From: a bacterium
Lineage (GTDB): Bacteria; UBA10199; 2-02-FULL-50-16; JAJFLM01
DNA length: 64,000 bases
Direction of reading: 5' to 3'
Assembly: GCA_965216315.1 (NCBI GenBank)
Contig: CBDCFN010000016.1
Span: forward strand, 2,240,001 to 2,304,000
Position 1 is the first letter of the stretch. Each line of letters begins with the position of its first letter. A program made the position numbers. Below are positions 39,001 through 42,000 of this stretch, in pieces.

Positions 39001-42000
39001 AGCAGACAAGTTTTGTCGGATATGTGTATCAATTGGCAGGAATCAAGGGCAGAGGCCTCGATCTATCGAATTTCTATTCGGGCATTTCCTCGACCGACCC
39101 ATCCGTATTCATCATTGCCCCGTCTTTTGCGATACGCTCCATGAGTTCGTGTAGTGGAACGGCATGACTCCGACGGGATTCAAACTTTCGCTCTTCATGC
39201 TTTTCATCCGTCGCCGCACCTTCTTCCGCGTCGTCATCCTCCCGCATTTCCTTTGCTTGCATCGGCATCAATCCAGCCAGATGACCGTAACTGGATTTAT
39301 TTAAAGTTGTGAATGAAGTATCCGTCTCTGCTTCGGTATTCGGAAGCGCGACCCAACGATCGTCGTCGAGAGCCAGACCAAGCTGTCCCCAGCTTAGCGG
39401 ACGTTCGCTCGCCTCGACATGAAGCTGTTCACTCAAACCCTCTTCCGTCGTGAAAAGCAAAGGGATCTGCTCCTCGCTGCTGAGACTCAAGGAGAAATGA
39501 TAATACTGCCCGGTCTCAACCCAAAAACTAAAACGACACTCGAAATCGACCGAACCGATGACGACGGTTTGAGGACCCTGCTGCACCCAAATCTGGCGTC
39601 CGACGCAGTCGCCGTCGCCCGCGAATTCCGCTTCTGCCTGCCACTCGGACTGCGGCGGCACCATGCCGATGATCTGGCGATAGGCGGACGGTGGATTACC
39701 GGCCTCGGTCCCGCCTTGAAACTGGCTTAGCGGCGGCTGCGTGCCGCAGGCAAAGCCGCCCAGGGCCTGAATGAACAGGCCCACCACGATGACGATGCAT
39801 TTTCGTATGGTGTATTCTCCCGATAAGATATTTTGCTTAAGTGAGAACATCACCTAAGTTATCGAAAGAATAAAGGAAATGTTGTATACAGCGGAAAATA
39901 TCTGTTGACTCAAGTCAACAGCTGCGCCTTTAGCGCAGCTGTTCGTGCAGATCTTCCGGATCTTCGATCGGCTGCTGCGCGCCACCGATCTCATTCAATG
40001 ATTTGATGACCTTAATAACGCTGTCTCTTTTGATCATCATTTTATCATCACCCTGTTCTTCTTCCTGCTCCGTAATACCGTAAGTTCCGGTGAACGGATT
40101 AGTCACCTCTTCGGCGCCTTGATTCTCCTCGGTGCCGCCAAAGCCTTCTGCAGGACCGGCCTGTTCCGTCTCGTCTTCACCTTCGCCCTCAGGATAATAG
40201 GGACCGCCGGTCCCTTCACTGGACCCGCCCGCCCGGGCGGCATAACTATCGCCTTGCTGGTAGAAGGAGATCTTGCCAATATCGTGGGTCACTCCGCGGC
40301 CTTCGAAACGGACATGAGGCGTATCATCATCGCCAAAGCCAACTCGAACCCGGGTGCCGTCAGGCATTTCAATATCAAACATATACTTGTCGCCAGACCG
40401 CAATCCAGGGATCGTAAAATCACAACTCGGCGTTACAGACGCACTTGTCTCTAAATGAGTGTGCACGTTCGTGGCAATAACCTTAACGCCCGCGCAGGCG
40501 TTCGGTAAATTCGGATCAAAACCGGGAATCTCCTGCATACGAGGAACGTTACCGGTCACCGAAACGATGCCGGGGTTTTCGGCCTGCCCGGGATCTTGAT
40601 CAGTCACCGAGGGACCGTTCCTGGGGTTACCCGCTTCGGTACCGCCTCGAAGTCCGGGATTTCCTAAACCGCCACCACTACCCCCAGTATTGCAAGCAGT
40701 GACCGTTATCGCCACGACAGCCAAGGTTAAAACTAAATTAAATGCTTTCTTCATGATGTAACACCCTTTCGTACGCTTCTTACGCTCTTTCATGTTTTGT
40801 CACCGGCAGCATCTGGATACTGAGCAAGACAACATCATCTGGATTGTCATCGTCAGCAACCAACTGGAGGATTTCGCGTCGAAACTCCTGAATGCGTTTT
40901 TTGATCTGCGGGACTCTTTCTTTAATAATTCCTAAAGTCAGAGCACTGACATCCCGTTCTTTTTGTTCCACCTCGGGAAGCTGCCCTTTTAATAAATCAA
41001 ACAAACTCTGGTGATAATTTAAAAGCACGAGGGAATCGGCTTCGGCACCGCTCGTTACAAGCGGTGTCGCCTGTTTCCACTTATTGGTCACCGCATCACG
41101 CTCAATAAAATGAAGTCGCGCCAACAATTCGACGGACTTTTTTACTTGCGCGGGAGACACTTCCGGCTGCAATCTTTTAGCCAACCACTCGATTGAACCG
41201 TCAAAATCCTTAGAAATGATCAACTCGCGCACAACCGGATGATACCAGGTTGAAAAATACTCGTAACGATCCTGCGCAAGTGGCTCTAACTGACTGTAGC
41301 GTTGAGAACGAATCAACTTCTTATAGTAAGCGTTTTTTTCCGCGTGCGTTTTCGCCTGATTAAAGAAGACGAGATTACGAAAGTGCTCGCGCTCCGGACG
41401 CTCCAGTTTGATTCCTTTAATGAATTTCTTGAGGCTTTCCTCAGTCAGGTTACGTTCGCCATCCATGACGAGTTTAAAAATATTGGAGGATTTAAAGCCG
41501 GCTTGCCGGGAAAAGACCCGATATGAAAACCCGTACCGCTCTTTGGCCGATTCATACCAATCGCGCAAGAAGGCCCGGTAATCCATATAATCGAATACTG
41601 AGACGTTATTGTTGCCGTTGTTACCCATGTCACTTACCTATACGCTATTATACCCTGTATACTGCCTGTTCTCTAGTTATCGTTCAGCGTCCGGCTTGAG
41701 TTGCCTCATTTTGACGAAATTTATCAATTTTTTGTATGCAGCAATCCCTATCTAACTATCTGTTATTATTAATTTTTTAATTTCTATCTTATTTATGCCC
41801 TTTTTTTTGAGTCAACAGGCCCCCCTGTTGACCCAGGTCAACAGATAATCCTGACGAAACGCAACGAAGACTCGAACGAATCCGATAAGTCTCAACGAAA
41901 CGAACCGCAATTTCTGAGCATGGAGGCAACAATGGGTGAACCAAGCACACTTCTTAATATCTATAATAGCACCAAAGACTATATTTGGAACTTAGCCGCT

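Follow-up and report, generated by a model that had tools for sequence, protein, structure and literature searches.

A recurrent gene pair of TIGR02147/DUF4423 regulators and G-T-E-x-G-N-P-tagged lipoproteins with candidate local operators

Described systems and the TIGR02147 gene pair

In Bacteroidota, the lipoprotein export signal (LES) is an acidic stretch at positions +2 to +5 after the lipidated cysteine, which is carried by many lipoproteins per genome and has no link to a regulator. FecI-FecR-FecA cell-surface signalling and the TonB box provide the case of a constant short N-terminal element on varied envelope proteins, with regulator genes paired one to one. In RNPP/Rgg-SHP cassettes, the gene for an HTH regulator lies beside a gene for an exported product with a short conserved peptide.

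The pair described here, a TIGR02147/DUF4423 regulator gene and a gene for a lipoprotein with the tag G-T-E-x-G-N-P, resembles each of these systems in part. As with the LES, a short motif that includes an acidic residue follows soon after the lipidated cysteine, lies in the tether and is independent of the cargo. The tag is not a LES, however: its sequence is G-T-E-x-G-N-P, it begins 2-40 residues after the cysteine, and it is present in 13 ORFs of the genome, almost only beside TIGR02147 genes. Like FecI-FecR-FecA and the TonB box, the pair has a constant N-terminal element, and each envelope protein has a regulator gene of its own, with many paralogs in one genome, but the TIGR02147 regulator is a soluble HTH protein without a membrane segment according to its model (pLDDT 89.6). 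Neither a sigma factor nor an anti-sigma factor nor a TonB-dependent receptor was found among 41 same-strand downstream neighbours in other genomes, and no ECF sigma or anti-sigma genes occur among the window ORFs scanned. The same 41 neighbours revealed no conserved third gene; they belong to DUF4382, CarboxypepD_reg, DUF4397, PfkB, AMP-binding, OmpA, Fasciclin or PrkA, or to no family. An HTH regulator gene that adjoins a gene for an exported, short-peptide-bearing product is also the hallmark of RNPP/Rgg-SHP cassettes, yet the pair is not one of these: no TPR is among the listed fold matches of TIGR02147, the partner is a full-size lipoprotein, and the same peptide occurs in all paralogs. 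As judged from the model, the N-terminal Xre-like HTH would be common to TIGR02147, Xre/HigA/DdrO-type repressors and two-domain repressors such as SaPI Stl, and the central winged helix would be common to TIGR02147 and MarR/ArsR repressors. A palindromic site at the regulator's own promoter is found in HTH repressors and TIGR02147 alike. TIGR02147 differs from these repressors in that the two domains and a conserved C-terminal part form a family of their own and in its obligate pairing with a tagged lipoprotein.

The focal pair and the other modules of the window, i.e., the whole 64-kb stretch of DNA that was analysed, are listed in Table 1. The focal regulator is a full-length TIGR02147/DUF4423 member. 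It matches TIGR02147 (Fsuc_second) with 278.2 bits (cut-off 50) over positions 3-271 of 272 and Pfam DUF4423 with 122 bits (cut-off 30; E 2e-35), and its Atlas neighbours are TIGR02147/DUF4423 clusters. The ORF of lipoprotein 1 overlaps that of the focal regulator by 14 nt; its start is probably M14 (40754). The N-terminus of this partner (...LAVVAITVTAC) fits the lipobox pattern [LVI][ASTVI][GAS]C, a sequence pattern applied without a predictor, and the protein is thus a predicted bacterial lipoprotein and signal peptidase II substrate. Stretch 39000-42000 is matched by four DNA-type sequencing runs of one study, with no RNA run among those listed.

Table 1 Modules, tag DNA and palindromes in the 64-kb window
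Feature	Position	Strand	Basis or remarks
Focal TIGR02147/DUF4423 regulator, 282 aa	40780..41628	-	HMM matches, model, fold matches; predicted Xre-like HTH, winged helix and C-terminal helical part
Tagged lipoprotein 1	39930..40793	-	signal peptide, lipobox VTAC, GTEAGNP at residues 51-57; family-B beta-sandwich cargo
Tag DNA for GTEAGNP of lipoprotein 1	40623..40643	-	pattern match, contig positions 2280624-2280643
Tagged lipoprotein 2, second gene of the module	39074..39853	-	GTEAGNP at residue 48; tag DNA about 39692-39712
Divergent gene, 200 aa, without family match	41920..42522	+	ORF and family scan
LysM-domain protein gene	42711..43238	+	domain match
Second TIGR02147 regulator	44432..45292	-	HMM matches
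Lipoprotein partner of 44432..45292	43248..44435	-	two GTDFGNP tags in tandem
Third TIGR02147 regulator	47273..48121	-	recognition helix of Met52/Gln56 type; followed by untagged 628-aa gene
Lipoprotein with three tandem SEFGNP tags	48566..49711	-	upstream of regulator 47273..48121, downstream of beta-helix gene
Fourth TIGR02147 regulator	21443..22306	-	
Tagged lipoprotein partner of 21443..22306	20779..21450	-	GSEIGNP at residue 31
Truncated TIGR02147 copy	55210..55833	-	without winged-helix part and tagged partner
Palindrome CTGTTGAC-CCAG-GTCAACAG	41825..41844	.	197 bp upstream of focal regulator, 76 bp upstream of divergent gene 41920
Palindrome CTGTTGAC-TCAA-GTCAACAG	39902..39921	.	between the two tagged lipoprotein genes, upstream of the second
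Palindrome GTGTTGAC-TGAC-GTTAACAG	42607..42626	.	upstream of LysM gene
Palindrome GTGTTAAC-TTAC-GTCAACAG	42769..42788	.	5' part of long LysM ORF, upstream of internal Met at 42891
Palindrome GTGTAC-TTTA-GTACAC	48500..48515	.	between lipoprotein 48566 and regulator 47273
Palindrome GTGTAC-ATGA-GTACAC	51335..51350	.	96 bp upstream of beta-helix/DUF4215 gene 49761-51239

Pairing within the genome and across phyla

The genome encodes 13 full-length TIGR02147 proteins and one copy that lacks the middle domain. According to the survey's finding, each of the 13 genes is followed by a gene for a tagged lipoprotein. This holds for 12 of them, which have a lipoprotein ORF directly at their 3' side (gap of -41 to -4 nt, mostly with overlapping stop and start), but not for the regulator at 47273-48121, which is followed by the untagged gene and has its tagged lipoprotein 445 bp upstream. 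The three tags of that lipoprotein comprise one match to the strict expression, one relaxed match and one recognized by eye. With the strict expression, G-[ST]-[EDQ]-x-G-N-P just after the lipobox cysteine, nine of the 12 direct partners were detected, while the other three carry the variants VSEAGNP, GTEFENP and GTEATNP. In the complete set of 2,700 crude ORF-genes there were 13 strict matches, all at residues 22-71, whereas 50 shuffles gave 0.24 on average and never more than 2; the count reported before was 14 in 2,622 proteins. Apart from the nine direct partners, the 13 matches represent two second genes of modules, the lipoprotein beside the 13th regulator and a single orphan (C16:1825329). 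A palindrome was sought upstream of the operon of this orphan gene and none was found; one GTATTC palindrome is located just downstream of it.

Outside this genome, 80 loci were available, and the 74 with enough flanking DNA were scanned in frames, independently of ORF calling. The strict motif is present in the plus frames just downstream of the regulator in 48 of the 74 loci and a relaxed form in 69, and controls remained empty, both in the minus frames of the same stretch (0/74) and in six frames upstream (0/74). The strict count lies above the 36 of 77 loci reported before, since ORF calling fails in high-GC loci. With a slightly wider expression, 79 of 80 loci show a motif that follows a cysteine, and L067 has none; for L077 the expression chose another stretch, and PTETGNP was seen by eye. 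The association also holds in the opposite direction. In 30 related genomes, 13 of 17 strict GTExGNP DNA matches sit just downstream of a TIGR02147 match. Among 80 metagenome loci collected with the exact GTETGNP DNA pattern, ten have the context of a lipoprotein, i.e., a signal peptide and a cysteine recognized by eye, and all ten have TIGR02147 upstream (E 2e-14 to 5e-115), compared with none of the remaining 70.

The pair is probably a conserved operon that has been inherited as a unit. Stop and start are separated by -4 nt in 32 of 79 loci, and the distribution of partner clusters on the regulator tree takes 20 changes, whereas shuffled labels take 51.2 and none of 200 shuffles was as low. 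The tag occurs in UBA10199-like, Myxococcota, Bdellovibrionota, Fibrobacterota and Thermodesulfobacteriota genomes. Up to 18 TIGR02147 match rows were obtained for a related genome, and Fibrobacter succinogenes has about two dozen copies. The pairing is stronger than first reported, and in agreement with the survey no description of the regulator and tagged-lipoprotein pair, or of the tag, was found in the papers and family libraries searched.

Predicted DNA-binding domains, palindromes and recognition helix

The view of the regulator as a two-HTH protein is supported by the model and its fold matches, which point to two domains of DNA-binding type, an Xre-type HTH and a winged helix. Residues 15-99 superimpose on 3pxp with Z 8.2 (rmsd 2.9, 80 residues), on DdrO with Z 6.9 and on HigA with Z 6.5-6.9. 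Residues 115-200 match winged-helix chains (ArsR, HxlR, MarR) with Z 7-7.9, values that are middling for the method. At the sequence level, HTH_3 gave no match to the focal regulator at E <= 0.01; the domain is assigned to 14% of the members of one Atlas cluster. Solved relatives of the regulator were not found by sequence below E 0.1, and a Foldseek search with its model returned no match at E <= 0.001. No fused or longer regulator forms scored in 2,904 candidates of 495-2,000 aa, which is weak evidence for their absence. For Bd3700, a family member from Bdellovibrio, the supplementary tables of PMC12546842 list stage-specific expression with a log2FC of 2.67 at 4 h.

As a new result of this analysis, TIGR02147 genes are preceded by a palindrome of the form GTnnnC-N4/5-GnnnAC. 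When the inverted-repeat arms upstream of 91 regulators were counted in an unbiased way, GTATAC, GTATTC and GTTTAC came out on top. The expression GT[ATG]T[ATG]C-N0-14-G[ATC]A[ATC]AC is found in 30 of these 91 upstream regions, with a shuffle mean of 1.24 and 1/69 in a control region, and 24 of the 30 matches sit 76-100 nt ahead of the point at which the protein match begins. Half-sites are constant within regulator clades while spacers vary, as exemplified by three loci of the serpin clade with GTTTAC-N5-GTAAAC and three other loci with GTATAC-N4-GTATAC. The intergenic DNA of our genome contains 19 perfect palindromes (0.5 in shuffles). Note that a perfect palindrome occurs in the 200 bp upstream of only four of its 13 regulators, with no more than degenerate candidates at the others.

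The window contains four copies of the focal variant, CTGTTGAC-N4-GTCAACAG, all of them within 3 kb of the focal pair (0.02-0.04 expected). At 41825..41844 a third half-site overlaps the -35-like sequence TTGACT, while the site at 39902..39921 also scores terminator-like on the minus strand and fits an intrinsic terminator. Because sites touch the promoter, autorepression by the TIGR02147 regulator is suggested. The gene at 41920..42522 and the LysM gene are likely members of the local regulon. Genome-wide, 17 focal-type sites were detected with up to two mismatches, and each either precedes an ORF start by no more than 350 bp or falls inside the 5' part of an ORF. Most of these lie beside genes outside any module, and a different factor could therefore own them. 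GTAC-N4-GTAC resembles cyanobacterial LexA boxes. A LexA-type identity was rejected on two grounds: the genes next to the palindromes encode lipoproteins, beta-helix proteins and regulators, and the half-site sequence varies together with the TIGR02147 helix. The survey had proposed that the regulator controls its cassette and the adjacent secreted beta-helix/DUF4215 genes. Paralog-specific palindromes upstream of regulators, lipoprotein 2, the LysM gene and the beta-helix/DUF4215 gene provide evidence at the sequence level for this proposal in the genome at hand, but beta-helix/DUF4215 neighbours are particular to it. No beta-helix/DUF4215 domains were found in the 41 downstream neighbours scanned elsewhere, and such neighbours are thus a feature of this genome and not of the module.

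When each site-bearing regulator is classed by its first half-site, base identity covaries with residues of the predicted recognition helix. Met is present at helix position 52 in all six regulators with GTGT half-sites and in none of the 24 other rows; L076, which has one GTGTTC and one GTATAC arm, has Lys at this position. Position 48 is Ser or Thr in eight of eight regulators with GTT half-sites and Pro in 15 of 16 of the GTAT type. The number of independent clades behind this covariation is small, the Met52 type having arisen in about two. Taken together, the palindromes and the helix covariation characterize the TIGR02147 protein as a putative operator-binding autoregulator.

The tag peptide and the role of the pair

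For the codons of G, T, E, G, N and P, the first and second positions hold 1.3-1.9 bits, as opposed to 0.06-0.5 bits for the third positions (0.83 for AAY). Since third codon positions are free, selection acts on the peptide, and a DNA or RNA element, such as an operator or an RNA structure inside the partner gene, is ruled out. G (84 of 93 partners), N (88) and P (83) are the most invariant residues, and five of the 93 partners carry two to four tags in tandem. In the model of a family-A partner, residues 19-32 have pLDDT values below 50 and the first strand begins at residue 38, two residues past the end of the tag, which would place the tag outside the fold, in a flexible tether ahead of the cargo. 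Hydrophobic stretch and small residue before the cysteine are as required for a lipobox in 80 of 93 partners; in the 13 that fail, the preceding residue, where readable, is H, D, R, N or F, which is unusual for a lipobox.

Behind the tag, the partners (153-1,039 aa) are diverse. They fall into at least seven unrelated clusters and 13 singletons, with families A and B accounting for 60 of 95, and their cargo types, i.e., serpin, beta-propeller, Big_5 and two beta-sandwich families, are unrelated. Pfam assigned Serpin to four, Beta_propel to four, Big_5 to five and CarboxypepD_reg to two of 78 partners scanned and nothing to 60. None of 61 partner proteins reached the cut-off of an NCBIfam model and no model covered the tag; the same applies to the focal partners. 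Foldseek returned no match to the family-A partner model at E <= 0.001 (best MbnP, TM 0.38). A complex prediction for the regulator with partner residues 21-75 scored 0.01 against a mark of 0.32 and, performed without control runs, is evidence neither way. Tag and regulator are exclusive to each other in both directions, which counts against a sorting signal of general use among lipoproteins, as was suspected in the survey. Near-perfect exclusivity is not expected for a shared envelope sorting factor, the signal of which should spread to other lipoproteins.

With a probability of about 0.55, we favour a locally acting Xre/winged-helix regulator with a translationally coupled lipoprotein target, the tag being a tether motif read by another protein. 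The TIGR02147 protein would be a cytoplasmic transcription factor that binds, as a dimer, a palindrome of 16-20 bp, in the focal paralog the variant given above. The predicted sites fall within or immediately precede the promoter of the regulator gene and recur at a few promoters nearby, so that each paralog would govern a small regulon of local genes for envelope and secreted proteins. Translation of the second gene, coupled to that of the first, would yield a lipoprotein with the tag in its tether ahead of a variable cargo, and another envelope protein may read the tag, as a peptide, as a docking, sorting or processing site. As tag and regulator occur almost only together, control by TIGR02147 would be obligatory for tagged lipoproteins, and the fate of the lipoprotein may feed back on the regulator. 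A bolder version, which we regard as possible but unlikely, makes the tag the coupling element of a trans-envelope circuit, in which the fate of the exported lipoprotein (export, docking or cleavage at the tag) is signalled back to its own cytoplasmic regulator without a sigma/anti-sigma pair or a histidine kinase. Such a signal might be carried by precursor that has not been exported, by a released peptide or by a shared membrane transducer. If true, such a circuit would explain why tag and regulator occur almost only together across phylum-level distances.

Other readings assign a different role to the tag. The peptide could be the ligand of the regulator. It would be sensed either in the unexported precursor, which would couple feedback to export, or as a peptide that has been released and taken up again, like the signals of RNPP/Rgg systems. 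The one-to-one, two-way association across phyla despite cargo swaps fits well, and translational coupling would place the synthesis of both proteins together. We nevertheless consider this improbable: the 13 paralogs have nearly the same tag, which would therefore convey no paralog-specific information, no TPR or other known peptide-binding domain appears among the fold matches, proteins of 150-1,000 aa are not small precursors, and the exported tag and the regulator are in different compartments. Equally doubtful is a cleavage site that frees the cargo from its lipid anchor, by spontaneous or assisted Asn-Pro scission or by a dedicated protease. Asn-Pro bonds can cleave via succinimide formation, as in the NPTH autocleavage of FlhB/YscU; this chemistry and the invariance of G, N and P speak for such a site, as does the location of the tag, in a disordered tether that leads straight into the first cargo strand. 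Lipoproteins would then be intermediates in the delivery of soluble or secreted proteins by the module. However, tandem tags are useless for a single cut, known Asn-Pro autocleavage needs a structured loop whereas the tag region is predicted to be disordered, and the exclusive tie to the regulator is left unexplained.

It is rather improbable that the tag has no function of its own and is a conserved leftover of one ancestral lipoprotein leader, kept with the regulator by common descent. The predominance of cargo families A and B and the partner types that track the regulator tree would be in line with this, but the amino acids at seven positions have been retained in five or more phyla, whereas flanks and third codon positions drift freely, and the tag persists before cargos as unrelated as serpin and beta-propeller. 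Gene order, 4-nt overlap and operator resemble type II toxin-antitoxin modules, in which the gene for an HTH antitoxin precedes and overlaps the second gene and the operator is palindromic; in addition, the N-terminal domain has HigA antitoxins among its fold matches. The pair is, however, not a module of this or another defence type, a reading to which we give hardly any weight. The product of its second gene is an exported lipoprotein that has a signal peptide, a lipobox and domains of several kinds (beta-sandwich, serpin or propeller). A set of thirteen copies on the chromosome, next to genes for secreted proteins, is also at odds with such a module, and PADLOC yielded no match for seven module proteins of the window except a weak 'control protein' (E 0.006).

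TIGR02147/DUF4423 is a large family without known function, and no experimental work on it was found in the literature searched. With a predicted operator, a partial recognition code that relates helix positions 48 and 52 to half-site bases 3-4, and defined local regulons of envelope and secreted proteins, the family becomes a testable system. The tag is a compact and strongly conserved feature of the lipoprotein tether in predatory (Myxococcota, Bdellovibrionota, Bradymonadales) and polymer-degrading (Fibrobacterota) lineages, in which the rules of lipoprotein sorting are poorly known. The tag could find use as a marker in annotation and as a handle in protein targeting, and its reader is probably a new step of envelope biogenesis or signalling.

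Pairing of regulator and tag

Crude ORF calls made for this analysis from the 2.96-Mb genome (16 contigs) yielded 13 full TIGR02147/DUF4423 regulators and one truncated copy. For twelve of the full regulators the next ORF, at a gap of -41 to -4 nt, encodes a lipoprotein, a status judged by sequence pattern alone. Nine of these lipoproteins carry, behind the lipobox cysteine, the strict form G-[ST]-[EDQ]-x-G-N-P of the GTExGNP heptapeptide (the tag), and three a one-residue variant. The 13th regulator (47273-48121) is the exception: here a triple-tagged lipoprotein is encoded 445 bp upstream. 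The strict pattern matches 13 of 2,700 ORF-genes, always within residues 22-71, versus an average of 0.24 in 50 shuffles. In the focal pair, the ORFs for regulator and lipoprotein 1 share 14 nt. Missing from the truncated copy, in frame, are about 85 residues that span the winged-helix domain; its HTH and C-terminal part remain, and no tagged partner follows. Between two TIGR02147 genes, and apparently in the same operon, lies the gene for a 628-aa protein (45358-47244, minus strand) that contains a P-loop-like GLSGSGKS and matched nothing in Pfam or PADLOC.

Features in the window
Feature	Position	Strand	Remarks
Focal regulator, 282 aa	40780-41628	-	full-length TIGR02147 match (278 bits, cut-off 50); Pfam DUF4423 match
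Tagged lipoprotein 1	39930-40793	-	signal peptide ending VTAC, glycine-rich stretch, GTEAGNP at residues 51-57, beta-sandwich-like domain
Tagged lipoprotein 2	39074-39853	-	next gene after lipoprotein 1
Full TIGR02147 regulator	21443-22306		
Full TIGR02147 regulator	44432-45292		
Full TIGR02147 regulator	47273-48121		
Truncated TIGR02147 copy	55210-55833	-	
Short GGCSL-tail ORFs	22425-23267, 26462-28288, 28316-30628, 30695-33994, 34119-37160, 37388-38950	-	
CTGTTRAC-N4-GTYAACAG	39902		
CTGTTRAC-N4-GTYAACAG	41825		then third half-site overlapping -35-like hexamer
CTGTTRAC-N4-GTYAACAG	42607, 42769		
GTGTAC-N4-GTACAC	48500		palindrome of paralog 47273
GTGTAC-N4-GTACAC	51335		palindrome of paralog 47273; upstream of beta-helix gene

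The recurrence of pairing and motif in other phyla was confirmed. The best 80 loci of 439 relatives are labelled UBA10199-like 'Deltaproteobacteria' MAGs, Myxococcota, Bradymonadales, Bdellovibrionota, Fibrobacterota and Thermodesulfobacteriota. In the 74 with enough flanking room for a frame scan, the plus frames directly downstream of the regulator contain the strict motif in 48 and the relaxed motif in 69 loci, versus 0/74 for the minus frames of the same stretch and 0/74 for all six frames upstream; a slightly widened tag regex was positive in 79 of the 80. TIGR02147 matches (E <= 0.001) were obtained in 24 of 30 related genomes. The 30 genomes contain 17 strict GTExGNP DNA matches, and for 13 of these a TIGR02147 match is located upstream at a distance of no more than about 300 nt; the reversed control pattern gave five matches across all 31 genomes. 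Conversely, among 80 metagenome loci with an exact GTETGNP-coding pattern, ten show a signal peptide and cysteine ahead of the tag, and all ten have TIGR02147 upstream. An automatic lipobox rule had picked 18; the other eight were, by eye, chance frames without signal peptide or regulator, and none of the remaining 62 has TIGR02147 upstream. Within the data examined, tag and regulator thus predict each other. GTETGNP also occurs internally in two conserved, unrelated metagenome contexts, ...NATFNGTFNIDGTETGNPFADFLLG..., which may resemble a TonB-dependent-receptor-like family, and ...ISAVKARQNILVGTETGNPISVDDAF..., found in gut-metagenome records among others, which may resemble a phage-tail-like protein; neither has the regulator upstream (loci L108, L129, L132, L165, L185; L113, L124, L136, L140).

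The TIGR02147/DUF4423 family is catalogued yet uncharacterised. The sole paper found by full-text search lists the Bdellovibrio DUF4423 protein Bd3700 as up-regulated late in the predatory cycle, with log2FC 2.67 at 4 h in its supplementary tables (PMC12546842). Neither pairing nor tag was found in print, in agreement with the survey, nor were the predicted operator and the helix-to-half-site correspondence described below. NCBIfam holds no model for the tag or for the 61 partners and the focal partners scanned.

The tag and its cargos

In 79 tag instances, the first and second positions of conserved codons carry 1.3-1.9 bits and third positions 0.06-0.5 (Asn 0.83), so it is the peptide that is under selection. 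The logo over 93 partners reads G85 T76 E72 [T41 A16 V16] G84 N88 P83, and five partners have tandem tags (2-4 copies). The tag starts 2-40 residues past the cysteine; among the 80 partners whose Cys could be scored, the distance is exactly two in 25. The cargos fall by single linkage into family A (36 members, DUF4382-like), family B (24, beta-sandwich with conserved cysteines), a Fibrobacterota family (7), serpins (4), three more small clusters and 13 singletons. Pfam, run on 78 partners, returned Serpin (4), Beta_propel (4), Big_5 (5), CarboxypepD_reg (2), weak DUF4382 (2) and TSP_3 (1), and nothing for 60. When a family-A partner was modelled with AlphaFold (pLDDT 83.8), pLDDT stayed under 50 for residues 19-32, and the first strand began at 38, two residues beyond the end of the tag. 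Given the diverse cargos and the low pLDDT ahead of the first strand, the tag is a short linear motif of the tether, outside any fold. Partner type changes 20 times on the regulator tree versus 51.2 with shuffled labels (0/200 shuffles as low), which indicates that pairs are inherited together; cargo is occasionally replaced while leader and tag are kept.

Thirteen of the 93 partners (L003, L034, L036, L038, L041, L043, L050, L057, L058, L063, L068, L078 and, in the own genome, C15:68050) fail the lipobox rule. Where readable, H, D, R, N or F rather than G, A or S precedes the conserved cysteine, which is unusual for signal peptidase II, so some may be processed differently. Family-A lipoproteins (alignment A4, e.g. 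L082:3529-4341, minus strand) share an acidic C-terminal motif, L-[FY]-x-D-x-D-x-D-x-x-L-D-x-x-E, that looks like a calcium-binding loop. Genome-wide, a very short C-terminal tail, G-G-C-S-L-[ILVM]-R(-R/K), closes 20 ORFs. All encode large secreted proteins, and many of these contain beta-helix, DUF4215 or choice-of-anchor Q domains. In eight others (e.g. 49761-51239) GGCSL is followed by a hydrophobic helix of about 25 aa and basic residues, MYXO-CTERM-like; a ninth regex match lacks the helix. The short tail looks like a C-terminal anchor signal minus its membrane helix.

Regulator architecture and predicted operators

The focal regulator was modelled from a 73-sequence alignment (pLDDT 89.6, pTM 0.78). 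In line with the survey, the model contains two DNA-binding-type domains, both at middling Z scores: an N-terminal Xre-like HTH (residues 15-99; 3pxp Z 8.2, DdrO Z 6.9) and a winged helix (residues 115-200; ArsR, HxlR and MarR chains, Z 7-7.9). A sequence search of solved structures found nothing significant, nor did Foldseek.

Evidence in favour of DNA binding was found in the flanks. When perfect inverted-repeat arms were counted without bias across 91 upstream regions, GTATAC (9), GTATTC (6) and GTTTAC (4) ranked highest. The derived palindrome regex matches 30 of the 91 regions (shuffles 1.24; control region of loci 1/69), 24 of them 76-100 nt ahead of the protein-match start. The own genome has 30 perfect GTnnWC-N4/5-GWnnAC palindromes, 19 of them intergenic versus 0.5 in shuffles (maximum 3), mostly 37-105 bp and in a few cases up to about 240 bp upstream of genes. 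Among the genes downstream of such sites are four for regulators, two for beta-helix/DUF4215 proteins and one for a beta-propeller lipoprotein, which comes third in its module; the survey's proposal that the regulator controls its cassette and beta-helix/DUF4215 genes is supported to the extent of these predicted sites. Four copies of the 20-mer CTGTTRAC-N4-GTYAACAG lie within 3 kb at the focal pair (expected 0.04) and none elsewhere in the 64-kb window. Ahead of the LysM gene, two copies of one composite unit are spaced 160 bp from each other (42560-42630 and 42720-42795, plus strand): a GC-rich hairpin with T-run (GGTCATCC...GGATGACC TTTTT), then the 20-bp palindrome and ATAAA.

Half-sites are constant inside regulator clades and spacers vary. 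With each regulator entered by its first half-site, position 52 of the predicted recognition helix is Met in 6/6 GTGT regulators versus 0/24 others, and position 48 is Ser/Thr in 8/8 GTT and Pro in 15/16 GTAT-type regulators; at locus L076, where one arm of the site reads GTGTTC, residue 52 is Lys. With so few clades, this covariation can be called suggestive but falls short of statistical proof. Same-class palindromes are also found 50-240 bp ahead of genes that belong to no module (e.g. C16:247155, 451238, 596768, 1131506 and 1803933), among them an ammonium transporter, a Laminin_G_3 protein, two NRPS-like genes and several unknowns, so regulons may reach beyond the local cassettes, or the site type may be common to several factors. 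Genome-wide, the commonest intergenic perfect inverted repeats with spacer 4-5 have arms CCCCTT (16), TCCCTT (15) and CCTCCT (9), and could represent terminators or some repeated element.

Possible roles of the pair

We conclude that TIGR02147 proteins probably regulate transcription locally, each paralog through its own predicted operators and likely by repressing its own gene, with the tagged lipoprotein as their first, translationally coupled target. Position, disorder, cargo independence and occasional tandem copies of the tag would suit a site for docking or processing that another protein reads. We also considered the tag as a ligand of the regulator, as a site where cleavage at Asn-Pro releases the cargo, or as an inherited leader without function, and the pair as a toxin-antitoxin-like module. 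A general sorting signal, already disfavoured in the survey, fits poorly with the exclusive link between tag and regulator, and this link leaves room for a feedback circuit.
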